A DNA stretch of 54,419 nt, filler included, from Sphacelaria rigidula (lineage: Eukaryota): NCBI GenBank assembly GCA_964200075.2. It is 5 parts of 5 records of this genome, joined end to end, with 100 filler letters (N's around TTAATTAATTAA, not from the genome) between each part and the next. Parts side by side here need not be neighbours in the genome. Positions count along the whole stretch, not along the records: positions 1 to 10,806 come from CAXNAA020005880.1; 4 more parts are not named here. The stretch is one strand, 5' to 3'. Position 1 is the stretch's first letter. Each line of letters begins with the position of its first letter. Positions 1 to 32,138 of the stretch are shown here, one piece after another. The notes beneath the pieces were generated by a model. The model saw only the letters and a program-made list of their open reading frames with translations, had not been told where the DNA came from and made no database searches. A program made the translations under genes and the position numbers.

Positions 1-264
1 AAAAGAGAAATGCCACTTCAACCCCATATTTTGTATGAACCTCCTTTTCTAGGATCCACTGTTTGTTGTACTCATGTCGTGATTCATGACTTGGGGATTT
101 GAAATGTCAAGTATTTGCGCGGACATGCAGGTGATAAGCCGCTACTGTGTAGTGCGGCGACCTGGCGACAGACGAAGCACATTTCTGGTCCGCAACGGAG
201 CTGTTTGCACCGTGCGATAGCTTAGGCGATGACTTTTTTCTGTTCCGATGCTCATGCACGTGGC

Positions 265-746
265 AATTTCGCTCAACCAGGGCGAACATGCGTAGCTGAT
301 GTAGCTCTTTCCCACAGCTTACCGAGGGCAAACATGCGCGGATGAGCTACGGCAATTATGCGTAGCTCACCTAGCTCTCATAGCTCATCGAGGGCAAATA
401 TGCGTAGCTCATGTAGCTCTCATAGTTCATTCAGGATAAACGTGGGTAGCCAATGCAGCTCGCATAGCTCACCCAGGGGTAATGTGAGCTGATGAGCTAC
501 GGGTTAGTGGCTCACTTAAGGCAGACATGCGTGGCTCATGCAGCTCTTGTAGCTCACCCAGGGCAAATATGAGCTGATGAGCTACGGGTTGGTAGCTCAC
601 CTAGGGGTAACATGCGTAGCTCATGTAGATCTCCTAAACCACCCAGAAGGAACATGCATAGCTCATGTAGCTCTCATAGCTCACTAGGGAGCAACACTAA
701 AAATCAGCAAGGTCGAGCTACAGGGAGCTGATCTGTTCGACGTGTG
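265..746. repeat. Tandem array of ~42-43 bp GTAGCTC/GAGCTAC modules (left arm), ending in a unique tip ...GTTCGACGTGTG
   Basis: Repeated units such as ctcacccagggcaaacatgcgtagctcatgcagctctcatag and atgagctgatgagctacgggttggtagctcacc. The array is the reverse complement of the one at 4689-5465. The left boundary is approximate. Confidence 0.85.
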
Positions 747-2093
747 AAAACGTTCATGTATTCGGCGAGTACTGCTGAGCTCAAGCACATAGGGAAAAGA
801 CGCAACGAGTAGCTTTTCCGACCTGCTCGAGCACTCGTGGGAGTGTGGAAAACTCCAAAACAAATCATGCAAGTACAGCAAGTGCTTGCGGCGAGGTGCA
901 ACAGTCAGGCGCCGGCACCGAAACATACAGGAGCGGTGTGGGAATTTAATCTGTAGTACGATATGCTACCCGCACTTCCGCTCGTGACCTATTTCGCACC
1001 GTGTCATGTCGTACGCGATCGGTTCGTCGACAACGTCGTCGCTTGAGTAAACTGAGCTACGTTTCCATATCACCATATCTATGAGAACGATGACACAATT
1101 ATACTCTGCTCACAGTCACTACAAAATGCACCCCGTGTGGGGTACTCACAGTTGAAGCTAGGGGAAAATGTCCATACAAAAGACTCCGCAGCAGTACGGA
1201 ATAAATTTCCATTCACACGTTGGCAGAACAAGATACCGTCCTGCACAAACGAGTAAGCACACGACCAAACATGGGATTCCGAAGACATGGGAGGCCATAC
1301 TATCCAAAGTCGCGGTGACGAAAAAACGCGCTGTTTGCTGAAATGTTCCCACGATTTGGAGCCGCGAATTCCCCCCCAGAAAGTGAGTATTTCGGATACG
1401 ATTCGATCCACAGAGAACAAAAATACTCGCCATTGTTGACGTCATCTCCAACATCAGGTTGTTTTGACCATTCACAGCAACCGGTCAATTTTCGACAAAT
1501 CCGTGAACTGCGTGCGACTTCATCCTGACTCACTTTGGCGAACAACTTCACGAGCAATTTTCTACCCCGCCACCAAATATTTCAACATGTGAACATTCAC
1601 CACGTGACGTTCAGCATAACCTGAACTCCCTTCGCTTCAAATGGACGTGCATGGCGTTAGCCGTCTACCAAAGAATATTGACTCATCACCCAACATGATA
1701 TTTATCGCCAGTCACAAGACTGCGCGCTACACGCAACTCGCAGCTTGAGGCCGTATATATGACCATGATTGCGGGTGAGAGTCATCACAACATCAGCGGA
1801 CGTTCCAGCGATGACGGCCAGACCCCCTATCAACTGGGTTGCTTCAATTTCCCTTTTTTATCTCGAAAGATGAGCACAAAACCTTGCCGTGTACTTCACT
1901 ACTTCTATTTTTGTACAGCGCTTCCTACTGCACTCCATTGCCCCGTCTACTCAACATTGGGTTCCTTGAAACCTTGCGCAAACGACAGCTGTTGCGCCGA
2001 GGCAGGACACGCAAGCCGCCACAGAGGCTTGTCGCAATCTCGCCTGAAAATGAGCCATTGAACAAAGGCAGGTGACGCCACTTTCAAAACCAG

Positions 2094-3565
2094 TTACCAA
2101 TCCCCTTCGGGTCTGAGTAGCTGCAACGAAGCAGGCAAACTCCCCCTCTCCATCAAGCTGCTGCATGATACATATCCCAAACAGAGCTGCCGCAGGGAGT
2201 CAGGCCACCGCGCCTCCTCAACAGGCTGATTGAAATAGCTCCCGAATACGAGCTTATGCAAAGAGGCGGGCCACGTCACCCTCTCAACGGGCCGATTGAA
2301 GTACATCCCGAAAGTCAGCTCCTGCAGCGCAGCAGGCCACCGCATCCTCTCAATAGGTCGATTGAAAAGCACACCAAACCTCAGCTCCCGCAGCGCAGCA
2401 GGCCATTTTCCCTCCTCTATGGGCTGGTCGAAGCGCTCTCCAAACGTGAGACACTGTAGCGAAGCAGGCCACATAACACTTTCAACAGCTCGGTTGAAGT
2501 TACTCCCAAAGCGAAGCTTTTGCAGAGAGGCAGGCCAGGTTACCCCTTCAACGGGCTTGTTAAATCTCTCTCCAAAGGAGAGATACTGCAGCGAGGCGGG
2601 CCACTGCACTCCCTCAATGGGCTTATTGAAATCCACCCCCAAAACGAGACGCTGCAGCGAAGCAGGCCACCGCACTCCCTCAACTGGATGATCGAAATCA
2701 AACCCCAAATCGAGATCCTGCAGCGAGGCGGGCCACGTAACGCTCTCAATAGGATGATTGAACGACCCGAGGGAGAGCCCCCGAAGAGAAGAAGGCCACT
2801 CAACCCCCTCGATGGGCTGATTAAACATCCAGAAAGTAAGTTGTTGCAGCGAAGCAGGCCAAGTCACCCCCTCAATAGGGTGGTCGAAAGCCCCGTCGAA
2901 ATCGATACGCTGGAGGTGGGAAGGCCACACCACCTCCGCTATGGGCTGATTAAAATATATCCCAAAAAACAGACGCTGTAGAGAGGGAGGCCACACCACT
3001 CCATCAATTGGATGGTTGAAGTCAGAGTCTAAATTCATGTATTGCAGCGAAGAGGGCCACACCACCTGCTCGATGGGCTGGTCGAAGTCCCCTTGAATCA
3101 CAAGTTCCCGCAGTGACGCAGGCCACACCACCCGATCAATGGGCTGATTGAACTTTGGGAGTTCTTCACCCACGCTTGGAAATGTAATATTTTCAACTCC
3201 CCGCGGCCATACCACATTTTCCAAACTGCGGTTGAAGTCGGGCGAAAATTCCACGTGTTCCACGCGAGACAATATATCGTTCTCGCTACACATGAAGTGC
3301 GCTGGAGCGCACTCCATACACGTCACGCCACGCGCCCGCAACAACGGCACACGGCTCACAGCTGTAGAGGCTTCCTCGACGCTGGTCGCCCAAAGCCGTT
3401 TCGGTGTGTTTCTCCCCACGTTCACGTGAAGAGTGCTGACGCTACGGCAAGCCAGACAAAACTGTAGCGACGCCAGCTCCAAGTTCTTGGTTGACAAGTA
3501 CGGGTGTTGTACGGAGCAAGCTTCGTTGAGCAAGATGGTGATGGCGTCGAGACACAGACTGCGGC
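2094..3565 (-). CDS. FNIP (IP22, LRR-like) repeat protein, large terminal coding exon
   Basis: Stop-free ORF 2094-3533 with about 16 tandem 21-22 aa repeats FNxPIExVxWPxSLQxLxFGxx. The listed start is TTG. A polypyrimidine acceptor (gttttctcgcttcag|GC) lies at 3566, so the exon probably begins at 3565. The upstream exon/ATG was not identified. Confidence 0.9.
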
Positions 3566-4688
3566 CTGAAGCGAGAAAACAAATGGCAATGGCGCAGTCA
3601 ATGGACTAGTCGTGAATCGTGTTGTGTTGCGTTACTCAGGGATTGCATGGTATCATCGGCAATCAGCTCCGAGCAAGGTGGGAATTTGACACGCGGGAGC
3701 TCGAAAACGGCGCAATATCACCGAGTGGGAAAACGACCAGAGTGCGATGGTGGTCACTTAGGATATGTCTTGACGTGCCTGCGGGACCTACTTTTCTGTT
3801 TGACGAAAAATATTTTGGAGGGCTCGTGATCGGCGGGCCCCTAAATCCTTGCAGTAAACATGCCGGGTTGTTTGTATTATATTATACTGATCTGTACGCT
3901 TTTGCACAGTACACATACCGACCCGTCCTTCATCTTACGGTACTCTACCCTTTGATACCAAAACAATGGCACCGAATCGTCTTGTGTGGTCGGTAGTAAA
4001 TCATCCAAGGTCATTTTCTGTAGCGTTCGCCAGCTGAAACTAGGGTATTTACAGTACAAAACAAATACATTCGATCGGTTAATACCCTTGTGAACCATTC
4101 CGGACAATTCCGAACAGTTCTCGAGTTGCCAACGGAAAGGATGAACTGTAGGACTTGGGTCTGACTCGTTCTCGTTTTTCGAAATGACTCGTATCACTCA
4201 TCTCTGACTCCTTATTTTCGGAATGGATCGCTGGACGCAATACACCACGACCCATAGCTCGTTGGTTATGTGAAAGTGTTTCCAGGGCGCAAACTTGTAG
4301 CACGGACACGAACAAACGCAAGAAGGATCTCTGTTATCGCTCGATTGTCCCGGGGTCCACGGCACGCTATACTTCAGCATGGAGATATTGACGCCATGTC
4401 ATATCTCCAAGATAATTCATGAACAAGAACACTAGTTTTGCTGGCAAAATATCTTCTTCCATCCCAACGAAAAACAGGAGTATTCGACGGTACCATCAGC
4501 GGGTACACGAGATCTGCGGACTACGTGAGTAACATTCAGCGTCTTACCACACCGCACGACTGTGGCTGGGCGTGTAGACCCTCCCAGCCAACCGATGATT
4601 ACCTTGACCTTGCCAGCCAATCGATGATTGGAAAAAACTGTTGCTCCAGTACCGAAAACTGATAAATCAAGGGCGGTGTACGACTCCT

Positions 4689-5465
4689 CACACGTCGGAC
4701 AGGTCAGCGCCCTGTAGCTCGAGCCAGCTCTTTCTTAGCGTAGCTCCCTCGTTAGTCATGAGAGCTACATGAGCTACGCATGTTCCTCCTGGGTGAGCTA
4801 TGAAAGATTCATGAGCTACACTCATTTGCCCTGGGTGAGCTACCGGACGTAGCTCATCAGCTCATATTCGTCCTGGGTGAGCTGTGGGAGCTGTATGAGC
4901 TACACACATTTGCCATAGGTGAGCTACGAACCCATAGCTCATTAGCTCATATCCGTCCTGGATGAGCTATGAGAGCTGCATGAGCTACGCATGTTTGCCC
5001 TGGATGAGCTACGAGCCCGAAGCTCATCAGCTCAGATTCTCCCTGGGTGAGCTATGAGAGCTGCATGGGCTACGCATGTCTGCCCTGGGTGAGCTATGAG
5101 AGATGCATGAGTTACACATGTTTGCCCTAGGTGATCTATGGGAGCTGTATGAGCTGCACACGTTTGCTAGAGGTGAGTTACCAACCCGTAGTTCATCAGC
5201 TTATATCCGTCCTGGGTGAGCTATAAGACTGCATGAACTACGCATGTATGCTCCGCATGAGCTACCAACCCGTAGCTCATCAGCTCGGATTCTCCCTGGG
5301 TGAGCTATGGGGACTGCATGAGCCACGCATGTTCGTCCTGGGTGAGCTACCAACTCGTAGCTCATCAACTCATATTCGTCCTGGGTGAGCTACCGGACGT
5401 AGCTCACATGTACATGTTTGACTACAAGTGAGCTACGGCCCGCAGATGGACTAGCTCATGAGCTG
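4689..5465. repeat. Tandem array of ~16 mixed 42-bp (A) and 43-bp (B) GAGCTAC modules (right arm), starting with unique tip CACACGTCGGAC...
   Basis: A = cctgggtgagctatgagagctgcatgagctacgcatgtttgc. B = cctgggtgagctaccaacccgtagctcatcagctcatattcgt, which contains the hairpin gagctac-N6-gtagctc. The array is inverted relative to 265-746. Confidence 0.9.
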
Positions 5466-6479
5466 TCCTACGTGTGCAACTCTTGCAGAGACAGATGAAG
5501 GCTGGCCCTGGAGCACTACGCACGCAGCGAGAAGCACGCCGTGAGCCAAAGTACCTCCTTCTCATTCGAAACTGAAGTGCAGGCGATCATTGCAGAGAGG
5601 TCGTTCCAGGGATGTGTGAGCAGCGCGTCGGCCAAACGGAAGCAATAAAATCTGGCATCTTGAGGGAAACAAAAGCAGGAAATCGACATGACAGAGAATG
5701 GGGTCAACATTGCCCCAAATCGCCACAGTCACTGTAGCTGCTCTTCTCGGTCGAGGTTTGGAGGTCACGGCCTCAAATTTTGAGGAGAGTCGCGAATCGA
5801 CAACTTGGAGTCCATAAAAGCGGGCTTTATTGCTACTATCACTACTGTTCATCGTACCAAAGATGAGGGCAAATGTTTTCTCTATGGGAAACCCAGGCAA
5901 ACGGTCGTGACCTTTCCCCGGAAAACATTTTTGTGATGACCTCAAGAGATGCTAAACACGTACGTATCCTCGAAGCTTCTGTTCCCAATTTTCAAAACCT
6001 TAATCGGAAACTCGTAGGCGACACCTTCTCTTGTCTCAAGGAGGAAGACCAACCTGTGTGTATTGTCTCGGGGTTTTCAGTCATTGCGGAGAAAACGGAC
6101 AGTTGAGGGACCGTTGGCGGTCGAAATATTTGGCGCTCCGACGATCATATTGGTCGTGTGTTTCGTGTTTATTCCTTCAGTCGGTGCCGCTTTCTCTTCC
6201 CCTCTTTCAGCTCCCAAGATTGCTGAGCAACACTCGGAGCATGTCGTAAGGGTCGGTCTTTGTGAGGTGTGAAACATGAGGCGGAATTTGATGTGCGATT
6301 GCTACACCATTCCAGGACGTTTGGGTGAGTCAGCACAATTCCTGCCTTTCTGCGGTGTTCTTCATGTTATGTGAAGGTACAACCATGTCATGTCGATCAC
6401 CTGCTAGGATCGTCTCCTTTTGGGCTAAACGCGAGTTTCAAAGCCGTCCACCCTAACTATGCTGAATCTACATACTTCG

Positions 6480-8940
6480 TTCGTCCAAGGTCCCCCCTCT
6501 GCTGTGCAGTGAAGTATCGTGGGCACTGTTCCCATCGATGCAAACCGTCTGTATTCCCGGCAAAACACCAAACGGACAAGATGGGGGTATACGTGTTCAA
6601 CCCGTCGGATGACGAAGATAGGGCAGTAAAGAAGAATGATCGGATAGTCAAAATACCAGCGACATCCACTTAAAGGCATCAACGATGAAAGTACGCAATT
6701 TGATATTTAGTTCCACGAACGTTGAGTGTACCCCACCATTCATGTTTGCTAAAAATCTTGTAATCGTGCGGACATGCCCGTTAATAATCACAATCTGCGA
6801 ATTAGCGCACATCAATGGCGAACGATACAAAACTAGGTCATTTGGATCACCTTCGGCTGAGGTCTTTTTGCCTCGTTTGTCTTCGCTTCGGACAGGGGAA
6901 ACATTCTCCTCTGTAAATTCCATACGAATTACATGCAACCTGTGTTGGTGTACAGTGACATTCTCGTAGATGTTATTCTGTATACTGCGAATTGAGAGGG
7001 TGTGCCCACAAGGTCACAGGCTTCCGAACGTATACGTGATAGTGGGGAATACTCACGTTTGGCACAATAAGAGCTCCAACCGCATGATTTCATTTTCAGT
7101 AGCACCCCCTGCCCCCCTCGCACATTTGCAAAAACACCGGCACAAAGTTGCAAGGGTGGGTCTGGAAGATAAATACCCGGGTATTCACAGTTCCGGATTT
7201 TGTGCTGCGATGATCCCATCTCCGAACTGAGACCAAACATTGTGTCAAGTGAGGTGCCATCACAGTACTCTACTCCAAATCTAGGAAGAAATGAATACTA
7301 TTTTGCAACATACCCCAATGTAGGAAATACCCTACCCTAAACATGTACCCTTGGAAACTCGTCGAAAATATGGCGCAAGACTTGACGCAACCAGCCGCAA
7401 GCTGGGTTGGAAAAGGTTAGGCGGCATTCAAACCGCTCACGAGTGCCCTGTGCCAGGTCTTCTATACCCCCCCACCCCCAGTCACGACACCAGGCCATTC
7501 ATACAAAACCAAATCCTCGAAAATCGGCGCTGTGATTGGGCTGGTGCCCTGAACGCAACTCAACTGCGTCAGATTTCCAGAGATCGCGACAAATATCAAC
7601 ACATGCCAGACATGTAGAATTTTGCGTGGTCGTTGGTGCGTGTCAGAAGGTTCCTTGATGCAACCGAGATGTAAATGTATGAGTAACTCAGGAAACACAG
7701 CATCACGTACAGTACAAACACCCGCAAGAGACAGCGCGTGTATCTACAGATGGCTTGACTGCACTACAGCTGGCATCAGTTTTGTCGTCTCTTTCGACAC
7801 TCCAAACCCAAGCGGAGGTACCACTGCCGATTTGCCCTTCTAGTTTTTGTTCAAGGCTATGCCGTGAACAAGTGATTCATTTGAATGTTATCAAAGTCTT
7901 AACAGGCATCACCTCCGGGATGTTTAGTGATTTTCTTACCTTCCTCCGTCCACGGCGACGTACGTGTTAAAAATACAGCATTTCAAACATAGATGGGTGT
8001 TTATCCTGCATTGTCTTTATGGATTACAAAAAGTGCGCGTTCCGCACACCAACGATCAGCTCAGAGACCGCCATGTCATATATCGCGCAAGCTTCCTCAT
8101 GGTCATCGACACCGGCATCAGCTTCATCTGGAACTAGATATTCTCAAGCTATGTGCAAGCAAGCTTACTACCAAGTTATTGAAACACCCCGGCAGTCTAT
8201 CGTGTAGTCTTCTGATGCCTTCTTTCATTTCTCCGTGGTTATGCCCGCCATGTTACATCACTGAAGCTCTCACAGAAACCTTCCGAGAAATGTCACAGAA
8301 ACCTTCCGAGAAATGAATCAAAATCTGAGGGCTGTGTGGGCGAGAGGCCTAGAAAAATAGCGGGGTAAATAGATCTCTGTGCACGGAGCAAAGACATCTC
8401 AGCCTTCCTCGGTCATCGTTTGTAAGTTTTCCTTTTTATACGAGGACGTTCGCGACCCCATCAACCACACGACGGCCTGTACGACATGGATAATGCTGAT
8501 CCTCCGGTAGATGTCTTCCAGAGCTTCCGAAGAAAAAACAGAGTCCATCGGAGCACGTGCGCGGTGTGGTGCTTCCCTGCTGAAATGATGTTCATGGACC
8601 GTGATTCATTTCCGTTCATCAGGCAGCGCTCGTGCTACTGTCAATTTCTCCAGATAATTGGATTTTTCGTCCAGGTTCATCTCTGATGTGTTATCACAAC
8701 GATTGCATTTGTGGCCATACGAAAGCAAAGGCAACCCCGCAAAATCCACGCCATGTTTTGTGCCCGAGTGATGGTGCTATGTCAACGGTTCAGGTCTGGA
8801 AGACTTAGTGAAAGCGCGCGGCGGCGTAAAAATCCTCCACCGTTTTGCGAATCTCCCGCACAACGGATGTGATAGTTCAGGATACGCGTGAGTGTACTGA
8901 CCACACCGTGGAGCCAATTACTAAGTGGCCGTGCTGAAAC
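6480..8940 (+). pseudogene. Possible heavily decayed KDZ (Kyakuja/Dileera/Zisupton-like) transposase
   Basis: Frame-shifted fragments read by eye, in order: Cys/His clusters CCAVKYRGHCSH (~6500), CYSVYCELRGCAH (~6970) and CQTC (~7594); LHYSWHQFCRLF..YHC (~7760); AVWC (~8560); SSRFISDVLSQR (~8670); LHRFANLPHNGCDSSGY..Y.PHRGAN..VA (~8835-8930). The last resembles the KDZ DxFH..H..C..Y....N...EQ core. There are many stops. Confidence 0.4.
8270..8315. repeat. Perfect 23-bp tandem duplication
   Basis: tcacagaaaccttccgagaaatg occurs twice in tandem. Confidence 0.9.
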
Positions 8941-9109
8941 CAAGTACTATACTGAAACCAAGTAGTCAACGACTAATTTGAAATCAAATATATTTCATAC
9001 TATACTGAAACCAAGAAAGTCTATTTCCACACCAAGCTCAAGTTTTACCCTGGGCATGTAGACTATACCACACAAATGCCATGGTCCAAACGCGGATGCT
9101 GCTACGTCG

Positions 9110-10250
9110 ATCGTTGACGAGGGCGCCGGCGCTGCTAGCGCTGTCGAAGCCCATGCCCCTCCCCAACACAGGGAAGACACGAAAACTCCTCAATTTTGAG
9201 CTGATCATGCACCATCCAGGGTGGTGACGGCGTTCTACGATTGCGTGTACCGGTGGAGAGAGAGGAAGAATACAGTTTCTGTTCTACATTTTTCACACTC
9301 TCGATAGCCTCCAAGGGGGGGGGGGGGGGGGGTGACAAGTGATATTTTCCTTCAAGGATGCGCAAATCAGTTATGGCGGAAGGCATCCAGCGTAGGGATA
9401 TAGACTGTTCGGGAGCAAGTCCATACATGTGTTGATTTGGTGTTATAAAGCTTGGTTTGCTTACGCGGAGGGCCCTCCCGTCGGTGTATGGGTATTCATA
9501 TACACGTTATATACTAGTCAACTCGAGTCTTGACATGAACAAAAAAAAATGAAGGTAAGTACTCTTTTCGATACTACAGTAGGAAAATAGTTTTGGAGGA
9601 AACCATGTCATGGGGAAACATGTATTCCACACTCTAGAACATGGACCAAGTTGTCAAAAGGCGTACCACGTCAGGTATCGAAATGATTTCGGTGGCAACA
9701 GACTGAAGATTCGACACTGTATCCGACAACGTTTCGAGAATACATATGTTATCCGGGGTATAGCATAGCATTAGGAGTAGATCCATATATTCATTGACTA
9801 GCTAGGTATGGCAGCAGCGTAGCTTGCTAGCGTGGAGGGCCCTATCGTGTATGCCAAGCTTCGTACCACCGGAGTACTCACTGTTGTTGCCCCGCTGTTC
9901 TCCGGCAGATTCAACACAACCAAGACCCCATCAGAAGCCTGAAATTTAGTGCACGGCGAATACTTCTTCGTGGAAGCATATTCAGAGCATTGGTGAAGTC
10001 ACGTAAGGAGGGTGGGTCCATGGCTTCATCCAGCACAGCAGAGTAGCCATCCCAGGAACGTGGTACCCACCGTTTCGGCCTGTCGCAAAATAACCGTGGT
10101 GCCCCTCACCATCAGTTGCGTAGCTAGCAAGGGTGTCCATGTACTGATGATGCCTTCCATAGTACATTTGGTACCACCGTGTACTCCACCCGCAAACGGC
10201 TGACACGTTGGATGACATCCATTGGTAAGGTTGTTTTTGGATACTCTCAT
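9110..10250 (-). mobile_element. Degenerate non-LTR (LINE-type) reverse transcriptase remnant
   Basis: Minus-strand fragments occur in RT order: PPSLRDFTNALNMLP (~10000), ITPNQHMYGLAPEQS and TLDAFRH (~9400, cf. QxGF.PGRSTxD), AVTTLDG (~9225) and GHGLRQ (~9145, cf. GLRQG). The remnant is interrupted by a G17 run at 9316-9332. Confidence 0.4.
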
Positions 10251-10806
10251 CGTCGGGGAGGGGGGAGGGGAGGGAAGGGTGACCTAAAGGAGGCAAGTGG
10301 GATGCATACGTTCCAGTAACGACTCGCGTGTTCCGGGGCATCCCCGTCTGTATTTATAACCAGTCCTGACGGTAGACTAGAATGTTAGGGCGTACTCGGG
10401 AAATAAATTGGAGCAATATCTTCCTCGGGGTGCCTGTAGTCCCTTTGAGGAAAACAACAGGTATGGCGAGTGAGGAAAGGTTTGAGGCCTTTTTCTGGTG
10501 CCCATCACGCATTCCGATGCATTGTTGTCTAGCCGCAAACGACACACACGTCGGATAACACCCCCTGAGAAAGTTCGGGAAGGTAATACGTTGGCATTAT
10601 CCCCCGGAAAAGGGATGGCGGGTGGGAGAAGTCATCAGGCAGTCGGGTGGAGTGAATACATTCTAGCGATACATTCCTCATATTCAGGAACATCGCCATT
10701 CGTAGACAAAACTCTTGCACGGAATCAGTGAAGGGGAGGGGGGGGGGGAACGTACTCATTTGGTTGGTCGGAAGAGCGGCGGGTAGGGAAAGAGTGGAGA
10801 TCTCGG

Positions 10807-10906
10807 NNNNNNNNNNNNNNNNNNNNNNNNNNNNNNNNNNNNNNNNNNNNTTAATTAATTAANNNNNNNNNNNNNNNNNNNNNNNNNNNNNNNNNNNNNN
10901 NNNNNN
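10807..10906. other. Artificial contig linker (N44-TTAATTAATTAA-N44)
   Basis: 100-bp spacer with a six-frame stop sequence, repeated identically four times in the window. Confidence 0.98.
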
Positions 10907-11312
10907 TGCCTATCGCACCGTATGACGGCTGTTTGGAGCAGCCCTCCTGACCGCACCTCCTCCTGCTCAAGACATCCACCATGCCCGTGCCAGCATGTTG
11001 AGCGCAGAACTCTGCCTGCCTGCTGCCTATCGCACCGTACGACCGCCGTTTGGAGCAGCCCTCCTGACCGCACGTACTGCTCATGACCGTTAGCATGCCC
11101 GTGCCAGCATGCTTAGCGCAGAATTCCGCCCGCCTGCTGTCTACCGTAACGTATGGCGCTTGATTAGAGCAGCCTTCCATGCCGAACGTCTCACTCACGA
11201 CATCCGTCATGCCTGCGGCAGCATGTTGAGGGCAAAATTCGCCATTTTGACTACCCGCCGCACCCAAGGAGGGCTCTGTTGAGCACCCTACGGCGGAGCA
11301 CGGGACAGGCAT
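10907..11312 (-). CDS. EsV-1-7 cysteine-rich repeat protein (3'-truncated at contig edge)
   Basis: ATG at 11312, then about 3.5 repeats of CxxxGCxKxPSYGxxGSxxAEFCxxHAxxGMxDV. This is the EsV-1-7 motif known from the phaeovirus EsV-1 and expanded in brown algae. Confidence 0.88.
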
Positions 11313-11704
11313 CTCCTACACCGGGCAAGCATAGAGTCGCACATCACACAAGTCTTGTCGGCAGCAACTGCATAATGACCGCTCCGTCAGATCCGCTCCA
11401 CGACCAGGAGCTCCCCAGCTGTAGTTCAGAAGTTTATTTCGAGCACAAAGAGGAAGCGGGTCATTCAGCAGGGCGATACAGACGGTGCCAGCTTTCGCTC
11501 ACTCATTCGGTACAGTCAAGGGATGGGAGCAAGATTGTCAACGCAAGGCGCGAGATGCTCATACCGCAGAGATCGCTCACAGGCGTACCACAAGGAAGTT
11601 GTAAAACCTGTCACACGAATGACTCCTACGTTTTCGTCCATCCGTCTTTCTGCCGTTGCTTGCATAAACCAGCCCAAGCTTCAGCGAATGCAGCATTAGT
11701 GACA

Positions 11705-11944
11705 CCTTCTACGATACCCCCCCCCCTGAACCAACCCATAAGTGACACGAAAAAATAGTCAAACAGCGCCTGATGTTTGGGTTCAGGCTGCATGAAGCGT
11801 CTCACGTTGGCGACATTGGCGAGAACGAACCCAAGCGTGGGAATTCCCAGCTGCTCGTTCTGTTCGTTTTTCTCCATTCCGATTCACGTGAAGGTTTTGC
11901 CTCCCCAAACCAGGCACGTTTTGGGGGGGCGCTATCGTAGAAAG
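11705..11944. mobile_element. ~240-bp MITE, copy 1
   Basis: TIRs c(c/t)ttctacgata(g)cccccc ... ggggggcgctatcgtagaaag. Homologous along its full length, in opposite orientation, to 28184-28425. Confidence 0.85.
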
Positions 11945-13884
11945 CGTCCAGTTCAACCAGCAATGGAAGCCTGTGGGATGAGCACGTTAAGTCGTTACTC
12001 TTCATCTACAGATGGGCGTTAAATCGACTTCATTTCCGGGCTTCGAATGACATCGATTCAAAACGTCACCGTCGCTTGGATTTCTAGACACGATGAGCGC
12101 ATTTGTTCAAATGAGGGCGGTAAAGTGCAAAACGACTCAATGCCATACGGTTTGAAAAATACCATGGACGACGATGGCCAATTCACCATGTATGGCGAGA
12201 CGTACATGTTCTCACGAACTCGGTGGATTTCTTCAGGGATTCTACAAATTGGAAGGGCTTGGGAACTTTGGAGATTTTGTCTGTTGGGCGGCAGATACGG
12301 TCGATGACCTTGGACTGCATTTCCCGATAATTTTGGGGTGCTAGTTCGCAGTGTATGTAGTGAGTGACTCACAAAAATATGAAAGGAGCGTTGCCAGCTC
12401 TCGCCAAAACTTCGAGATTCAGCAGTCTCTTGCTCCATTTCCGCAAAAGTAGTACGTTGAAATATGGTCCTGAGTGTACTAGAAGTGGGAGTGTCGAATT
12501 TCTTCTCAGCTTTTACCGCAGACTCGCGAGGGGTGACTCTACGGCCCCGGCATGCAGGACCATCGCGCAGCCACGATGGAAAGCAGTGTCACACGAGCAG
12601 CCGTGGTTCACTTGCTGTCATCGCCGTTCCAGGCCGAATAATGCATTGTGAAGCGTGCTAAAACGTCAACGATCGAAAGTCAAGCCACCGTCACTTGTAC
12701 CCTCAGTTTCTCATCAACAGTCGCTGATGTCTTCTCCACGACTTTCTCAAGACAATCCACACATCCATGTGTCGGTCAGCTTTGTAGACGATCGACCTTA
12801 CAGTCTGTAGTGGCTGTATCCATCGTTTGTGGACCCCCTGTCACCATGAGGTCCTGGTCTCACTCAACCAGCCTCAGAATCGAAGCCGCCAGCACTGATG
12901 CGTCCAAAAACATGGAGCCTTCAGCATGAAAGCCTTGCTTGTACAGGCGTTCGCGAATACGGAATGTGAGGGCACGTGCAAATTCACATGCCCTCAGGTG
13001 GTCGACACAAGCACCATCAGTACGGTCGGTCACAGTGAGCACCACCTCAGGTGCTGAAAAATTCGAGAGCAGGGCGCACCTCCAGCACAAGGACGGCCTC
13101 CCCGCTCACCGCCGGCGACAAGTGGTACGACCATTCGTGAGAGTGGTCGATTTGGATCGTCGAAAAAAGGTGAGGGAAGTCCGAGGAGGATATTTCCCAC
13201 CGGTAGCCCTGCTGCTCGAGACAAGGGTAAAACAGGATTATACAAGTGGGCGTTGTAGGTATTCCTGCGGAGTGGATTTTGATGGGCTTGTAGCGAATCG
13301 CAGAAAATGTGATCGCCAGAGTTGAATGTCGGGTTAGTCTCGTCAATAGCAGGGGTTGGTTCCCGTTTTACCTGTGTATAGGTTTTGTGTTGCTCCCATG
13401 TTTTGCCGCAGAAAAAGAGGGGGATATCCAGCATGAACGCACACACGATTTGCCTACAGTTGCGAATGAATACGTGTAGGGTCCCTGGTTTACCATGGAA
13501 AAATGAGGCGAGGGGACTTTCATGCTACCGTTCAGTACAAATTTGCTCTTGTATGGGAGTGCGTAACCCATTCAGAAAATCAGAAAAATGAAAGGGAATG
13601 CGTAACGTATTCAGAAATCAGCGCGCGTTCATTTGTGCTGCAGGTCTCGCAATTCTTCGATTATTCAGTTCCGGACATTCAACCGTACGTCGGTAATAGA
13701 AAAAGCTGGTAGGTCCTGCCGCCGAAAAAATACGAAATAATATGGACAATAGTTCACATCCGTTCTGTGTACTGAACATGTGCCCAGGAATCAGCCTTGT
13801 AGTGCCTCGGAAACACAGTTCTGCACTCGAACACATACTCGCGTGAACCTGTCACAGGTTGGTTCAGACTTGTCACCCGAAAAA

Positions 13885-14640
13885 CACTCATCGGCAAACC
13901 CTCACGCCCTTTTAAGGCGTTAGACCCTGAAATTGTGCACAGATGTTTTTCACGCAACTTTCGAACGTCAAGGTGTATCGACCGTTTGATTTTTTCGCCG
14001 TTTTTCGGGGGTCTCAGTTTTTTCGCAGGAACATCAATTCAATTGTATCCCCGTAAACCGGTGAAGAAAAAAATAGAAAAAACTTCGTTCATGCTGAGTT
14101 GCGTAATGACCCATGGCACAGTTGTGCAAGGGTTCAGCGTCTAACTCCTCAAAAAGGCGTGAGGTTTTTTGCTTTCGTGCGATGAACCTTGACGTGCCGC
14201 GGTGAAATCGCAAACTACTTGATCTTAAAAAGAAACCAGCGTTTGTGGGCCTTGTTTGACGTTGACATGAAAACTCAAGCATCCGTTGACCGAGTTTTGC
14301 GGCGAAAGTTTGTGGGGCCCTTGCTTGGGTTATGCGGCGACAGCTCGTTCACGACAAAATGAAAAACAAGATCATAGTGCAGGTTTTCTGGGGTCTCAGA
14401 AAGGAGACTACTTCGAAAAACGACTTGGATCCCGTCGGACACGCGAAAAAAGGTGAAAAACTAAACAAGTAGAAAAAAAAACTCGCCCATGAAAAGTTGC
14501 GTAATGACACATGGCGTATTTGTGCATAGTTTCAGGCTCTAACTCCTGATTACGGCGTGAAGGTTTGCGCGTTTTGTGGACGACGTGGGCTTGAAACGTG
14601 CAACTCCTTACTACTTGGTTTTAGCATGAAAACATCTTCT
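13885..14640. repeat. Diverged ~390-bp-period direct repeat plus an inverted partial copy
   Basis: agttgcgtaatgac(c/a)catggc...tctaactcct...ggcgtga occurs at ~14097 and ~14494. A reverse-complement copy tcacgcc...gcgttagaccctgaaattgtgcaca lies at ~13902-13941. Confidence 0.7.
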
Positions 14641-17097
14641 GGGGTGAATTTCATGTCAAGGCAAGAAACACTGTATGAGGTTTTCAAGTTTCTCCTATCA
14701 AATTTGTATATGTGTCCCAGGACGCATCATTTTATTATTTTTCTTTCGGGGCCTCGTGTATCGCCTTCCGGGTTCCTTAATACTGGGACCCCCGGAAGCC
14801 GGTAGAGAGCGGAGAAACCATGCAATCTTGTCAAGAATACAACTTTTCGATTTGGAGCATCAATATCTACGGAACTGCCAAGTTTGAGAGCGATCTGAGC
14901 TTTTCTACAACAGACATCGGGGACACCGTCACGCGGCTCCCTGGGTCTTTCGTGCGTATCATTAGTGAAAATTAGAAGACACCAACACCCAACATCACCG
15001 AACTGTCACGGTTTCGGGTATAATTCGACCCCCGTAGTAACCGTTTCAAAATCTGTTGTTTTCGTGAGATTTCCGAGGCGATGAAGGTTACTACAATTTG
15101 AAGCGTGTGGAGATCATTGGATGAAATTGTGCTTGGGATTCGTCATTTCGATCTCGGAATCATTTGACGGGCGCTGATCGGTCGATATACCTTTTTGCCC
15201 TTAGCGCTACCGCTATGGTCTTACACACAAATCCGGTTATTCCACGCTCTTCACGTGTCCATGGCGGTTAGTATGATATCATGTATGCGACTATTGGGAG
15301 GGTATTGCGAAAGTCATTTCCTCATGACACAATTTTGGGTGATATGCGTGAACGAACCTATATGGTTTACCGGTGAGTATTCGAATACTTGTTCCAGTTG
15401 ATTTCGATTTCTTTTCAGGTTTTCCGGTCATCACGGGTTAACACGATTTCCGTTTGATCTCAAGCGTTGAGAAACGAGAGAAATAAATACCTGTCACAAA
15501 TCCGTAAAAAGCAACCTCCGACCTTAATCCTGCGAGCCTGGTGCGACGAAAAACTGGAGTGCTCCTTCCCGCCTTTGTAGGAATGCGAGGCTAATGGTCT
15601 CATGACTATGGCATGCACAGTGCTACAGCCGAAAAACCGTGTTCTTGGGGTCACATACATTCGATAATACTCCCTCGACAAAACGGAGTTCCGTCCGCGT
15701 TTGACACGACGAGATGGGGAAATGCGTCTTGAGCACAACCCGCTTCTTTTTCCAATGCCTTGCGATCCTCGATCTTTCGAGGTGAGGTGACATCGCCTGG
15801 GGAAAAAATCCCTATAGTGAACCACATGTTGAAACGTGAACTACTGCAACGCCTTGGCACTTCGACACTGCCGCCATGGTTGCAGGCTTCGTGGACCCCG
15901 ACGCGTCCACACCCAACAACACTGTTGTCTCATCATCCAGCTCAAAGGGTCACCATCATTGCACGCCCTACATCACAAAAGCAAAAGAGAGCCGCCTGGT
16001 AGTGACCCTTCTGCTGGTGTATGGACTAGAATGCTCGTGTCGCTGTTTCATCTTTTACTTCGTGCTCCTGGAAGGTCATCCGAAACCTCATCTCAGTTTC
16101 TTGTGCGTATAGGTCCACAGCTTGCGTTGTTTGTTAATAGTAATACTCGAATAAATATCCACGCTTGCGTACCCTCAACACCCCACGGCAGGTATTGCAG
16201 CCTTCAAGCACAGCACTTTAAATCGATGGCTTCATATGCACTCCCTTTGACTGATATGCTGTAGTGGGGAAGAAGTACTGCGTGTCATGTCGGGTCAAAG
16301 GACGTGGTTCGGGCATGGCCCTCAGGTAATTTTTCCACTTCACCCATGACGAGATAGTTGACGACTGTGGGAAAAATCCAAGCCCAAGAAGCTATTACTG
16401 CCAAAGCAGCCTGAATCGTGATTCATAGCGCGGAATCATGCTGACAGCCCATGCAACAAAGACGGCCGACAAAGTTGGCTGCGCCGCTGTCAGGTCAACC
16501 CGTTTCAGCGCACTTTCTGATAGGCCTGAATATCACGTCGCTGATAGCCGGGCGAAAGATTGAAGGATGTCCTCTTCGTAGGCGACGGTTGACGCACGTT
16601 GGACACGGGCGGATAGTGACAGTGTAGTTGATGAATATTTGTTTCGTATTAAGAAATACTTCGTCCCTGGACCATCACGTGGGAGTATAACGGAAAACAT
16701 CCCACCAGCGACCGTCCAGTTGTCGCCGACTCGATGCGTACCTATACACCACGGCATGCCAGGAGGCTAGGGTTGGCGACGTCTTCGCATACATGGGACA
16801 TTTGCTGCTGGCAGGATCATCGCCCATGGCGGTTTCCACGCGTCACGGCTGAACGTACAGGGGCAAAATATATGACTGAAGGCTATGATCGTTGCCCAAG
16901 GCGCGCTCGTTGATCCTCATGTCCTCTAGGCACGGAGCAGCGACGTTCTCGTTGCGGATATGAGTGTGGTTCATGGCTGACGAACGAGGGGTGCAGTCTA
17001 GCGTTATGGACCTTTCGAACTAATCGAAAAGCTGCTGCAGATTGGTCGGCAATGGAGGGATGAGAAACTACTCAACACGTTGTATACCATCTGTGGG

Positions 17098-17180
17098 AGG
17101 AGGGGGCGGGGGGCGTACTCATTTGTTGCTCGCCTTTGTCGTTTGACCATTGACCACGCATCCCTTTCGAGACGGGGCAC
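17098..17180 (-). mobile_element. Poly(C)-tailed short retroposon copy (subfamily 1)
   Basis: G-rich run followed by cgtactcatttgttgctcgcc...catccctttcgagacggggcac, flanked by the direct repeat tctgtggg. Confidence 0.8.
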
Positions 17181-18324
17181 TCTGTGGGGATATCTCAATG
17201 GTAGGACTTCGCACTCTTGCGACTACAAGGTGCCCGTATGCGTCCATGGTACTATGCGTCCATGGTACTATTGGAAACGTGTTGTGCCTTGTATTTCAAG
17301 TGCGAGTGCTCCCACAGGACAGATCCCAGAATTGGTGGCTAACGATCGCTTGGAAAAAAACGAAAACTAGAATCTTTTCAGTCGTCCTTCGGTATCACAG
17401 AGATGAAGACCAGGGACCTGTAAGAAATGCCCACCTGTTCTTACAGAGTGCATGTCCCGCCGCGTGTCGGGATCAAACGGGTGAATTAACGATCAGTCTC
17501 AAACGCTTTCGTGGGTTCGCTTCCCAACAGATCTGGTCTCGCTACACAGAATCCGGTTTCTGTCGTCGAAAAAGTGGAAAGTGGGTCCGAGCTGGGCCAG
17601 CCGAGAGTAGGTGTGAATCTTGCTCGGGCGAAGCACGGCGCGATATTAGGAGTTGGACGCTGAAATTTTTGACAGGAGCTTTTTATGATCGTAATGCAGA
17701 AGATCACGTGAGCAGCAAGGAATATATACATATATATATATATGAGCATTTAAAGTTTAAGCAAAAACAAGATAATGTCACAAGTCCAGGAAAAAAAGGA
17801 GAATCTGCAGCTGCCTACGTGAAGTATCAGTTCCTTTGGTGCAGAAGGTCTACGCGAAATTTCAGCTCGAGAGTCGTCGAATTGGGCCGTGCGTTTTACA
17901 TTTTCCGTAACGCTGCTGCACCCGTATAAATCAAGTGATGGGAGACTCCAATTATGGCGGTCATGGGTTCGAATCCCGACAGATTCTCTTTTTATTTTTC
18001 GTCCGTCGAGAAGGTCTACACTTCATAGTGTTACCAGGTTGTTCTACACTTCATAGTGATATGCTTACATCGGGTTCATTCGGGAAACTGGGAAAGATGC
18101 GGTGTGAGCAACTTCTAGTCGCTCTCGATCTGGTCCAGCTCGCAGCAGAAAAAAACTTCGGATGGAACCGACGAGCTGCGAGACTGCAGATCCAGTGCTG
18201 GATACACGTTACTTTGACACATGCACCGGGGAGGGGGTGGGTTGACACCTTGAGGCCATGACCTTGCCCCGGGAAGGGCAGGGGGTGTGGAATTGTGATG
18301 AGGAGAGCTACTAGAGCAATCCTC

Positions 18325-18875
18325 CAAGAGCAGGTCGGGTAGGGTATATACTTTTGAATACTCGGGCAAAATACCCGGGTATTTACTTTGCATCAGGTTT
18401 GGGTAGATTGGGTACGGCGTCAAATACTTGACTCAAATTCAAATAGATTCGGTCAGACCTCAACTACTCCACCCAACTATTGTGTAAGTACCCTCAGCAA
18501 AACCGGAGCATATAGTATCACTTGAGCATGACCTCAGTACACTACCCAAATTTAGGGTTAGGGTTAGGGTTAGGGTTAGACTATTGGGTACGACCTCAAA
18601 CACTCTGCCCATTTTTGGGGTAGATCGGGTACGACCTCAAATACTCTACTCGAATATTGGGTGAGCAACCCCTCAGCAACACCCGAGTATGGAGTATCAC
18701 TTGAGTATGACCTCCATACTCTACCCAAAATTTGAGCATCTTGGGTATCATCTAAAATACTCCACCAAACGTTTGGGTAGTTTGGGTGCGATTCCAATAC
18801 TCTACCCGACTGTTTGGGTAATACGAGTATAACTTTTCAAAAATACCAAGTATTACCCAACACGACCTGCCCTTG
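18325..18875. mobile_element. Non-autonomous hAT-like element (551 bp) with internal repeats and (TTAGGG)4
   Basis: Imperfect ~27-bp TIRs caagagcaggtcgggtagggtatatact / agtattacccaacacgacctgcccttg. 8-bp TSD caatcctc (18317-18324) / caatcctt (18876-18883). Internal ~60-bp direct repeat at ~18490 and ~18670. Confidence 0.8.
18552..18579 (+). repeat. Interstitial telomere-type repeat (TTAGGG)4TTAG
   Basis: ttagggttagggttagggttagggttag. Confidence 0.9.
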
Positions 18876-20914
18876 CAATCCTTCAATACTACTTACCGGC
18901 AACTATGCCCCAATATTTCGTCATGTTTGCAGGGATTGATTTTCCCAGTTCTAGTTGTAATACAACAGGGTCGATTACCGAGATGGCATCAAAAATCGAG
19001 AAAAAATATTTACAAACAATACCATCGTACTAGCACAGATGACGCCACATGAGCACTCGTGCAACGTAGCTCTTGTGAAGATTAGAGGAAGGAAGACGTT
19101 TCCCGACGCTGCAGCACAGCATCAGAAAGGAATGGTCAGATGCGGCACGGTACATTTCCTGTAGTGTCAAATGGTACGACGTAGCTTTTGCGACATAATA
19201 GTGGTCCTCCAGTAGGTTCCAACGCAGCTATGTCGTATCCACATGACAGAAATAACTTTTCACTCAAACCGTGAACCGTCTAGTAAGGTACGTGGCGGTA
19301 CGTCATAGCAGATGAATATGATGGGTTAGACAACAGTATTCATGAAAAGGTTGACGATGCCTAGACATTACAATTCTAGGTGCGACTCGTGGATACCCGT
19401 GAGTTACTAGTGAGTGGCTACAGCCTCCTGAAGAAATCCCCCAAGTACCAATGGAATGAACCACACCCTACCAGTCCGCGAGCACCCCCGGTGTCTTCGC
19501 GTGCGCCTAGTGTTTCAAACCCGTGTATTTCGGGAAGGGCCGGTGGATGCATAACCCCCATGACGCGCCCGCCAAGCAGCTCTTGCAGTTCAATGTACAA
19601 GACAGTACTTTGGTGCAACAAATGGCGGGTTGTTAGCTGGAGATCGTGAAAGACTTGTTTGTTATTTCTACGCTGCTCTGACTCCGCGTGTGCTCCACAT
19701 CACACGGTCCAAAGATCGTTCAGTTTTCTACGTTTCAACCCACATGATGGTGTCATGACGGTACCTGAAGCGGGCGGAGGAGCGTCAAGCTTAGCTACAG
19801 TGCTGAGTAGTTGTTTGTTTGGCACGACAAGCAAGACATGGAGATTTCCCCGAATTGTGACTTCACACATGTCGGGTCTATTCGACTCCGGGTGTATATT
19901 GGGGTACCGGAGCATGATACCTCATATCGTGTTTGCATTGTTGGTGAAGATCTTTTGACACGGGAGATAGCACCATTGTTTTCAAACGCACAACGAACAG
20001 CAACGCCGCTCGGCATGCAAAGCATACGTCCCCTGTAGTTGCACCATCTACTGACCGTGTGCAGCTAGCTGTTGGCTGCACGACTGCACTCAATATGGGA
20101 TAACGCTATCATCTCTGCCGTGAACCATGAAGGCATGTGGAGCAAATATGTTTGAAAAGATCAGTCATATTTACACAACAATCAACATTACCGCGGCACG
20201 GCAGGGTCAGCAGAAAGGACGGGGGGCGGAGTGCTCATTTGACCGCGTTCGCAGCTGCACTCCCCAGTGAAGTGCGCTCATTGAAGCAAGGAATATCACG
20301 GCTTACTTCGTAGCTGTAATTTGAATCTTTGCCAAAGCATGTGGATAGGTTGCACGATGCAGCTGAGATCTTTGCAGTCACGTCCGCCGATTCGACTCTG
20401 TGCTTCGTTTCTTTTGTGTAACGGGAGACACTTCACCCTTACTGGAACACCCGCCCGTCGTTCTTACAACAAAGGACCATTTTTCAGCAAACGAATTCGG
20501 TCTTTCGAATGTGTGTCTTGCCCGTTCAGTCCGCATTCATACTCTACTAAGCCGCCCCCAACATTTTCACGGCGCAGCTATGAGCATGCGACAAGGGATC
20601 AGCGGCGGTGATGTGGGTTGGGGTTCCACTGTGCCGGTGTGGCGTGTTTCGGTCACTTTCCTCGCGCTGCCACGTTCGAACGTCCACAGCTCAGAGCAAT
20701 CCTGTATAGATACACAGAGCCGCTCAGACCTACGTTGACTCCAATAAACTTCGATCTGGAAATTACATGTGTGTTCCCCATTGGACTCGGAACTGATCGT
20801 GATGACGAAAATCACGTTCCAAAAGCATTTCTGATCCTTCTTTTCCTGGCCAGACCCCTTCATGAAAAACGAAAAATACTCATGAAAGAGTACTTTCCCC
20901 CCATGTCGTATTTC

Positions 20915-21711: not shown

Positions 21712-21811
21712 NNNNNNNNNNNNNNNNNNNNNNNNNNNNNNNNNNNNNNNNNNNNTTAATTAATTAANNNNNNNNNNNNNNNNNNNNNNNNNNNNNNNNN
21801 NNNNNNNNNNN
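21712..21811. other. Artificial contig linker
   Basis: N44-TTAATTAATTAA-N44. Confidence 0.98.
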
Positions 21812-23973: not shown

Positions 23974-26900
23974 CTTCCACATGCACCCCCGTCCCCCACG
24001 AAGGTGTAGTCCCATATCTTGACGTTTTTTTCGGCTTTGCCGCAGGTCACCACCAGGCCCCCAGCACTCCCGGTATTTCGCGACAAAGCATCCGCCAGCT
24101 CGTGTGCAGGCGCAGCACTCACAGAGGACAGCATGTTTGGGATGTTGGTTACGACGGACATACTCGCCACGCCACCCGGATGCGCCCTGAATACCCCAGC
24201 AGACACCGCACGCGATCGACCTCCCCCTATTTGCATGCTGATGCGGCGATCCTGTCTGGATTTGGCGTTCTCTGAAGGGGCACGGTCATATTCGTGGTAA
24301 AACACCATGCGTCAGGGCAGCTACTGTCGGATTTCAGGAGAATTGGGAGCGTCATATTGCGTAGAAATCTTTCAGATATGGTGTCCGCTTTCTTCCTCCT
24401 CCTCCTCCTCCTCCTCCTCCTCCTCCTCCTCCTCCCCGTCTCTTCTCTTTTATCGTCATACTTTCAACCGTTCCCCTTCCTTTTTCTGAACGAATCAATA
24501 GCCCTCGAGGAATCGACCCATCTCTCCCGTGCCCCAGTACACGCCTTACATTTTGCTATCGCAGTAATGGATCAGCTCAGCACTCCCGCATCGCGTCGAC
24601 TCGCTCTTACCGGAATAGTTATCTTTGCTAGGTACGCCCTCACATGACAGAGGTAAGAAACTACGTATCACGAGGGGAAAGTAACGGTTGGGCGCTGCGT
24701 GCAAAATGATATGCATAAAACAAATGGTTTAGGTATCTTCATGACGCGCACCAACGACGGTTAGAGTTCAGGGGCGCCCACACAAGGAAGGTATCCGCGA
24801 CGCCACAGTCCGTTATCCTCCAGGGCCACCTGAACCCAAACTGCAGAATGGGTTGGGAATACGCAGAGGTCACCTTCGAAGGCCAAGCAGGAAACGTTCC
24901 ATACTCGAACAGTGCCGTCGCAGCCCCCACTAAGGAGATACACTCCATCCGCAATCATCGCCTCGATGGCATCCGTATGCCCCTGGCGAGTGTAGGTCAC
25001 AAACGAGTCGACTTGGGGTTTTCTGAGGGTGCATTGCATATTTACTTGCTGGCCTGCCCAGTCCCTGAATATCACGCTTCACAGCAGTGCTTACAGCAGG
25101 GGAAAAGAAAGACTACCACATGCAGAACGCGTAATATTTTTGCGTATGCTGGCAAGGGAACAACTGCTCGTTAAACACGAGCATACAGATTTTAGCAGGG
25201 ATTGGTCACAGTGTGCTAGAGCAACAGGACAGCCTGTGCCATAATAGAACAACAACACAACAACAGGGTAATACGCGGGATTTCACCCCCCTGACCCTCA
25301 CTCAACACCAGTGAAGCCTTCAATTTTTCAAACAGCGGGTTCGTATATGATCGCGTGATTTAGAGACCAAACAAGCCAGAACTAGAGCTGACTTTGGGTG
25401 TGCTATTGCCTCAGTCTCCTCCCCCGATAATGACCTTGTCCCGGAGGAATGCGATCGGCCGACATTCCTTGGTCGACGGGAGACGTCATCTATGGACAGG
25501 ATAGCTGGCAGCGGGACTTTTGACCATGAGCGACGTCACCCTATAGGAGGGGTGGGCTCGTTTACCTTTCAGAGATTTTTTGGCCTGGACGACCCATTCC
25601 GGAAAGTTATTGACGGCAGAGATAGCCCAAACGAACAATGAGTGTCCCAGTTCTGTCATCCGTCGAACACACAAGAACATGTAGAACATTGATTGCTTAG
25701 GCCGGCGACGTTTCTCTTTCCCTCTCTCCAGTACTTTTTTCTTACCCTGGGCGACGTCGTTCCCATGGTGATGCCGCCCGTTGACCAAGGGCTTTTTGGC
25801 CAAATTAGATGCCTCTGGTACAGCTCTTTTGTTTTGGCCGGTGAAAAAACTGCCGGCAAACTGCGGGCATCTTTCACTCATCTCGCGCTTCAATGTATAT
25901 GTGCATACTTTCTCCGTTATCACTCACATGCGCAGCGGCGCAAGTCTAAGAGAATAAGTCAGTCCAAACTGTATGCCTTGTGTCTCGATGTAAGATCCCG
26001 TCTTATCGAGACAAAAATAGTGAGGATATAATTGTGATTTCGAGCATGGATGTATGTGACTGTTCACAGTTTTTTATCCTTCTCATTGGTTGAGGGCTGC
26101 TGCTTTATGCTCAACGACCTTTCGGAGCAAGCTACAAAAATGATCATTTTATGATGATACAATTTTCGCACAGAGGAACAACTTGTTGAAAATGCAAGAT
26201 GCAGAATAAAAGGGATGCCGTGTGTGGGTTGTTCGGCTCATCATGGGGCCTGGACCACACACCAGAGGTGCACAGTTATCTGCTGGACGTGTGACGCACT
26301 GGTCCGTTCGTGTGTTGTCTGTGACGTTTTAAGAGACAACCAACTAGACTACTGACCCCGTCACATGTCACATCGAAAACGTTGTCATAGTCGAAAACAT
26401 AATTCCGTCGCTAAGAAATTCGGTCGATTTTTGTCGTGATTATGAGGTTGTGAAAGATCACAATCATTCGCGAAAGCACCTTTTTCCTCGACTTGTTTTG
26501 TCTCGACAAGACTCAGCTAACCTCCTCTTTAACCGTTTCTGAATGTTGGGAATAACAGGAGAGCACTGTGAACTACGGTAAAGCTCTAGAGTTGAACATC
26601 TATCGTTACACCCAACAACATTTCTTCTCACCTGCAGGCCCGCCAAGAAGGCGCAGCTGCCATCTCGGATGCGCCAACAACGCACTACGAGATCGTTTCC
26701 GGCGCTCGCCAGCAACGGCGTTTCCGCAGGCACGAAGGCGAGGCACAGAATTTCGCAATCGGAGCCGTCAACTGCTCCGTGCGCATGTTCGACGATAGTG
26801 TCCACTTTCGGAACCTGTTCAATATATATATATATATATATGTGTGTGTTTGCGGTTGAAAAAAGCAAAAAGGTCGGAGATGCCATGATCGGCCATGCTT

Positions 26901-31822: not shown

Positions 31823-32138
31823 CTGAAGAAACAAAACCGAAAGTCGGTAGCGACAGACAAAAAAAAAAGCAAAAAATATTTTGAAGCGCACATGAGGCAG
31901 CTGTTACGTAAACAGATAAAACGCAGCTTGCCGATGGTTCGGCAGGGATTCAAGTGAATTGCAGGCCTCTCAAGGGGTTGTCTGTAGAGATATATCGCTG
32001 TGCCAGAATTTCTCCTTTTGACGTAGGTCAGTAACCGCGACAGCTGCTCTCATCCTTCTGTGTATGCTATTTTGCGGCGCCTTATACTCGTGCAAAAACC
32101 TTGTCAGACACACGCGTGAATGTTCCACGCGCGGGATG

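Follow-up and report, generated by a model that had tools for sequence, protein, structure and literature searches.

In the brown alga Sphacelaria rigidula, a gene of the FNIP-repeat family lies between two arrays of short, GAGCTA-bearing modules that mirror each other and whose abrupt CAC...GTG tips face the gene. What are these arrays, and do they have anything to do with the gene between them? The locus lies near the start of a stretch of 54,419 nucleotides, filler included, from assembly GCA_964200075.2 (the window), in which positions 1 to 10,806 come from record CAXNAA020005880.1. A sequence-only reading had put forward three explanations: a Foldback or Pack-type element with an FNIP cargo gene, reversed transposon ends able to shuffle the repeat cassette, or two unrelated neighbouring insertions. 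The data favour the third. With a probability of about 0.86, the arrays stem from two old insertions, made independently, of a single high-copy, non-autonomous cut-and-paste DNA transposon next to a resident FNIP gene, which would itself be a bystander.

The inverted arrangement is real. Positions 352-684 match 4835-5167 in inverted orientation (333 nt, 76% identity), as do 591-747 and 4688-4844 (157 nt, 80%), and both Tandem Repeats Finder (TRF) and a module map show that the arrays are built from shared modules of 42 and 43 bp. The common tip stops at 746 and 4689 as sharply as had been proposed, with 49 of 60 bases agreeing inside the arrays and 10 of 60 in the gene-facing flanks. Two of the proposed outer limits have been revised. 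The right array had been taken to end at 5465; its actual end is 5476, in an inverted terminus of its own. The weak similarity thought to extend outward to ~140 and ~5530 is due to chance, since an equal score is reached by 710 of 1000 shuffles and by 214 of 410 actual window pieces.

The right array is in itself a complete element (Table 1). Its end at 5476 is the inverted form of the terminus CACACGT.GGACAG, and its second terminal inverted repeat (TIR) agrees with the first at 13/14, 16/18 or 16/21 bases, depending on the length compared. The 14-nt tip pattern has five matches in the window against 0.68 expected, and none of 100 shuffles contained five or more; a weak tip match (14/21) is also found at 10545. 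The interior consists of A modules with direct GAGCTA motifs and B modules with an inverted GAGCTA pair, giving 18 forward and 9 reverse motifs within the copy. These modules are likely to be subterminal repeats, with a putative role in transposase binding, and the proposal that the arrays are DNA-transposon ends with subterminal arrays has held up.

The element is bordered by an eroded target-site duplication. When duplication lengths of 2-11 bp were compared, 8 bp gave the best agreement (6/8), with the other nine no more than 60% identical; among the short lengths, 2 bp gave 1/2, 3 bp 1/3 and 5 bp 3/5. A match of at least 6/8 at the fixed length of 8 bp occurs by chance at 249 of 52,761 window positions, and once the ten lengths are allowed for, the local duplication is suggestive rather than proof. 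A perfect 8-bp duplication was not seen at any single copy.

Broader evidence comes from the contigs of four of ten listed public runs (X1, X3, X4 and X5), aligned to positions 1-6500 at 80% likeness. Runs X1, X3 and X5 belong to one study and X4 to another; X1 is possibly the source sample, and X5 is too shallow for judging sites. Because X1, X3 and X4 draw largely on one set of copies, they are not independent of each other, and their agreement amounts to one observation and not three. Loose contig ends fall exactly before 4689 (35, 34 and 35 contigs in X1, X3 and X4) and exactly behind 5476 (46, 43 and 41), and the flanks of the contigs that leave there are unrelated to one another (agreement 0.39-0.41). 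Numerous copies thus begin and end at these two positions, each in surroundings of its own. In the flank consensus, the last 8 bases before 4689 agree with the first 8 behind 5476 at 6/8, 7/8 and 7/8 positions in the three runs, and the consensus on both sides of the element is near the palindrome AAATATTT. Other lengths, judged by eye, gave 0/2 for 2 bp, 0/3 for 3 bp and three to five matches for 7 and 9 bp.

The family is abundant. At the tips, contig depth adds up to ~380-1650 times the single-copy flank depth, a figure that is not a copy number and is read only as a rough sign of abundance. Depth at the second end (5449) is ~3-4 times that at the first (4725 and 712), an excess that may reflect further families or symmetric copies with that end, or a mapping effect. 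High-copy arrays, each arm with its own partner end and duplication, had been named beforehand as counting against a tie to the gene; the arrays are indeed high-copy, and the right arm has both a partner end and a duplication, whereas for the left arm neither was found. The two-array arrangement is no assembly artefact, since contigs bridge the facing tips: X1 record 4 (715-4783) spans the two together, and X3 records 8 and 11 each span a single one. The X4 contigs cross 4689 and 5476 by just 20 and 25 nt, which is below the 31-nt rule, and a shared insertion in X4 is therefore not claimed.

The left array is a further copy from this family, inverted and truncated, which has decayed separately. 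It is identical to the right copy at 374 of 471 aligned bases (~79%); the first five modules are collinear (the first right module being placed by alignment), after which the order differs. The array fades at ~265, where it gives way to a single-copy contig spanning 107-300. Among the 40 of 639 rows listed in the variant comparison, the two copies have no derived change in common at 7 of 7 sites: the family majority base is carried by the right copy at six left-private sites, and by the left copy at one right-private site. Nothing in this comparison thus indicates that the copies form the arms of a single element, or that they are sisters of recent origin.

This comparison bears on a local hop, in which one copy would derive from the other by short-range transposition, leaving an inverted pair able to rearrange the FNIP exon. 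The exon could then be deleted, duplicated or inverted, either by sister-chromatid transposition that uses tips 746 and 5476 or by ectopic recombination. The geometry is suitable, as the pair is inversely oriented and the ends at 746 (a first end) and 5476 (a second end) are unlike ends pointing in the same direction; the collinear first five modules also fit. The inverted Ac/Ds pair described at rice OsRLG5 is oriented in the same manner, and rice inverted Ds pairs are described as producing such rearrangements (PMC3239180). Unlike a fresh Ds pair, however, the present copies are ~21% diverged and one is truncated. The lack of shared derived bases, a left tip that departs at 2 of its first 20 bases, and the fact that no active transposase is known here also argue against a local hop, as does the absence of a joint between 746, 4689 and 5476 among the 15 of 594 contig joints listed. 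Neither a 746-4689 joint nor one skipping the right copy appears among those 15, by which rearranged or empty alleles are neither shown nor excluded. On balance, a local hop is very unlikely.

A Pack-type or Foldback element would explain the long inverted similarity around the gene by making the arrays the arms of one unit with FNIP cargo. Giant gene-carrying non-autonomous DNA transposons do exist in brown algae, according to the families described in PMC12477816, and the genome holds FNIP paralogs of at least 80% identity, with a gene depth of 2-6 times background. Yet the termini point inward and not outward, and the right arm alone is a complete element with its own partner end, duplication and dispersed copies. 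No left outer terminus or duplication is found (best 5/8 over 50 positions), and the outward similarity, as noted, is chance. Most of the non-coding interior is single-copy (bins 869-1736, 3690-3906 and 4341-4557), with the bin 3907-4123 at ~2 times that depth. Furthermore, X1 record 5, a paralog contig of 4524 nt, matches the window at 1981-3630 only, and no piece of an arm is among the matches listed for the 605 nt on its upstream side or the 1935 nt on its downstream side. This very unlikely explanation is already largely refuted. One X4 contig (record 18) skips the 54-bp stretch 4334-4387 of the interior, likely representing an allele with a deletion.

The inward-facing tips also raised the idea of RAG- or Transib-like signal ends, set in reverse, that would excise or shuffle the repeat cassette. 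In its favour, the CAC termini point at a repeat-protein exon, and brown-algal studies are said to report exon shuffling of leucine-rich repeat (LRR) and tetratricopeptide repeat (TPR) genes. Transib and RAG systems have 5-bp duplications and heptamer-spacer-nonamer ends, whereas the target here looks to be 8 bp. The tips terminate an abundant dispersed family and are separated from the exon by over 1 kb, and their 49/60 agreement indicates that one and the same end is present twice. Reversed-ends transposition is described as using one 5' and one 3' terminus (PMC3744419), and in Hermes, as reported in PMC10368747, two left ends keep little mobility and two right ends none; the facing tips would hence make a poor pair. 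We regard such signal ends as extremely unlikely. In the favoured explanation, the CAC...GTG tips face inward because the first ends of two copies placed back to back are turned toward one another, and CAC ends alone are no marker of CACTA, Transib or RAG-like systems.

To which class, then, does the transposon belong? The odds appear to be about seven in ten for hAT, two in ten for EnSpm and one in ten for any other class. A target of 8 bp favours hAT over CACTA, Transib or RAG, the affinities first suggested by the CAC...GTG ends. The present family combines short TIRs at both ends, an eroded 8-bp duplication, subterminal repeats and dispersed copies in unrelated flanks, and appears to work like a hAT miniature inverted-repeat transposable element (MITE). 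Elements of the hAT class are described with 8-bp duplications and TIRs of 5-27 bp, the Buster group targeting nnnTAnnn (PMC3517528), and the flank consensus of the dispersed copies fits this pattern with its central TA. The Drosophila element Mar, a hAT MITE of the Buster family, is alike in its short non-autonomous form, its short TIRs and its 8-bp duplication with a central TA.

The closest known system by description is hAT-2_Ec32 (Repbase hAT-2_ESi) of the brown alga Ectocarpus, for which ends of the form CACAC-GTGTG, TIRs of 21 bp and an assumed 8-bp duplication are given; among the families listed from the curated Ectocarpus library, it is the only one with CACAC ends (PMC12477816). The two resemble each other in their ends, their short TIRs, their brown-algal host and their 8-bp target, which is seen here in the eroded duplication and the consensus. 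However, hAT-2_Ec32 is listed as an autonomous element of 8945 bp with a spliced transposase gene and 92 copies (PMC12477816), whereas the present element is a non-coding 788 bp made up almost entirely of the 42/43-bp array and is apparently commoner, a comparison made by description only. No literature description of the present family was found, and the Ectocarpus library, likewise compared by description, may hold it or a relative.

Other classes fit less well. The putative EnSpm (CACTA/CMC) families EnSpm-N1, -N2 and -N3_Ec32 are described with 2-bp duplications, CACAG or CACCG ends, lengths of 6.9-11.2 kb and 20-25-bp TIRs; for Ectocarpus EnSpm as a whole the listing gives the ends CACCC, CACTG, CACAG and CACCG, and the EnSpm-N1 subtermini contain palindromes (PMC12477816). 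The present element shares with these families a terminus starting in CAC and subterminal repeats, but differs from EnSpm/CACTA elements in having no 2-3-bp duplication, either locally or in the consensus. Ectocarpus KDZ (Zisupton) elements are listed with 8-bp duplications, GGGG- or CAGTA-type ends that mostly start with GGG, and TIRs of low identity, and a P family with CAAGG ends and a 7-bp duplication (PMC12477816). An 8-bp duplication fits both KDZ and the present element, which differs in its clean CACAC TIR. A CxC6 (KDZ) match at 10854-11315 was rejected, as it is below cut-off and lies beneath a strong EsV-1-7 match. Viral contigs contained no match to the tip pattern or the module pattern. 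Metagenome contigs gave 20 exact 20-mer matches, none longer than 26 nt or array-bearing, and these are consequently all attributed to chance.

It may be envisaged that a hAT-type transposase, acting in trans, moved the family by binding its short TIRs and GAGCTA subterminal motifs; hAT BED domains are described as binding subterminal repeats (PMC10368747). Insertion would have been into 8-bp, weakly palindromic, A/T-rich targets, and two separate insertions would have been followed by decay, in which the left copy lost one end. If 400-1600 copies and a genome of 150-500 Mb are assumed, 0.3-17 pairs facing each other within 4 kb would be expected in each genome.

Several observations weigh against two independent insertions of a hAT-type element. 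A second TIR of the left copy was not found in positions 1-300, where the best score was reached by 177 of 1000 shuffles, and its flank AAAACGTT has no partner at 6/8 or better. An empty-site allele is absent from the 15 joints listed, and all seven variant sites separating the copies come from the listed rows, which cover the collinear tip region only. No transposase match above the curated cut-off was obtained in 110 window frames of at least 105 amino acids or in 75 shorter frames from four regions. The hAT label in particular is weakened by a related 226-bp element at 33965-34190, which has 32-nt inverted ends (84%) and a tip matching the TIR of the present family at 19/21 bases: it gives 3/8 for an 8-bp duplication and AG/AG (2/2) for a 2-bp duplication.

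The gene between the arrays had been described as an intact FNIP exon enclosed by them. The exon is confirmed; the enclosure of a whole gene is not, as the upstream exon was not found. Frame 2094-3605(-) stays open over 503 codons, contains 16 FNIP units and matches PF05725 at E=1.2e-60 (201.8 bits against a curated cut-off of 21). For 86 of 120 homologs, homology starts at 3540-3599, and a pyrimidine tract with CAG ends at 3566, from which the frame is probably a terminal exon starting at 3565. A comparison of 43 homolog N-termini with 3566-20000 yielded just two marginal plus-strand matches, and the first exon may be located on the far side of the right copy. Decayed repeats carry on in frame after the stop codon (best homolog match E=1.8e-6 over 1950-2090), showing that the FNIP array was once longer. 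In other respects the gene is an ordinary member of the brown-algal FNIP family (PF05725). Its protein is 32-51% identical to the 120 homologs listed, those with species names all being from brown algae, and no relative was confirmed in viral contigs. FNIP genes are described as a large brown-algal family (PMC4421812, PMC2373305, bioRxiv 10.64898/2026.04.27.720984), with 121 FNIP proteins reported in Saccharina (PMC4421812).

As it stands, the locus contributes one small transposon family to the brown-algal repeat library. This family provides observed, though eroded, support for 8-bp targets with CACAC-GTGTG ends, where the duplication had been assumed for hAT-2. Were the family enriched as inverted pairs around FNIP genes, it might drive exon deletion, inversion and duplication through sister-chromatid transposition or ectopic recombination, which would amount to transposon-driven expansion and diversification of a virus-related, LRR-like gene family in brown algae. 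We consider this very unlikely, and the importance of the locus would rise only with enrichment around FNIP genes and rearrangement breakpoints there.

Table 1. Features of the transposon copies and the FNIP-repeat gene, in window coordinates.
Feature	Position	Strand	Basis
Complete non-autonomous TIR DNA transposon, hAT-2-like, right copy, 788 bp	4689..5476	+	TIRs at both ends; contig ends
First TIR of right copy, with the CACAC terminus; ~50 bp specific to this end come next	4689..4706	+	16/18 vs far TIR
Second TIR of right copy, GTGTG terminus	5459..5476	-	14-nt tip pattern exact at 5463-5476(-)
Left half of eroded 8-bp target-site duplication, CGACTCCT	4681..4688	+	6/8 vs 5477-5484
Right half of eroded 8-bp target-site duplication, CAACTCTT	5477..5484	+	6/8 vs 4681-4688
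Array of A (42 bp) and B (43 bp) modules inside the right copy	4746..5455	+	TRF periods 42/85/169; module map
Left copy, inverted, from the same transposon family; first end present, second end not found	~265..746	-	Alignment to right copy
TIR of left copy, same end type as 4689	729..746	-	18/20 vs first end of right copy
Target flank of left copy, AAAACGTT, unlike that of right copy	747..754	+	Sequence comparison
Open, probably terminal exon of FNIP-repeat gene, 16 units	2094..3565	-	PF05725; homology start; predicted splice acceptor 3567-3566
Two further decayed FNIP repeats, in frame past the stop	1950..2093	-	61/120 homologs match 1801-2093

The window also contains other repeats and genes. 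The right end of another very abundant repeat occupies 1-63 and ends in GGATCCACTG (57-61), with 126, 80, 118 and 33 contigs leaving at 63 in X1, X3, X4 and X5; CAGTG-CACTG ends are among those listed for Ectocarpus Mariner-Tc1 families (PMC12477816). Five runs of N (10807-10906, 21712-21811, 32615-32714, 39652-39661 and 43518-43617), four of them split by a 12-nt spacer, overlap neither the arrays nor the FNIP region. Adjoining an N run, a 114-bp tandem repeat at 10907-11240 codes on the minus strand for cysteine-rich motifs of the EsV-1-7 type (PF19114, E=7.6e-40); together with the brown-algal homologs of the FNIP protein, these repeats point to a brown alga as host. A 240-bp element whose inverted ends are TTCTACGATA...TATCGTAGAA is present in two copies (86%) at 11707-11944 and 28184-28423, and a dispersed 320-400-bp repeat in three (83-85% identity) at 32128-32531, 37826-38149 and 41482-41882. 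A second repeat of ~80 bp ends in a run of C, with shorter copies at 17095, 20913, 29339 and 31508. Finally, exons of three ordinary genes encode a WD40 repeat (24764-25078, minus strand), the C-terminal domain of an Fe/Mn superoxide dismutase (32998-33219, plus strand) and a C2H2 (JAZ) zinc finger (45204-45989, minus strand).

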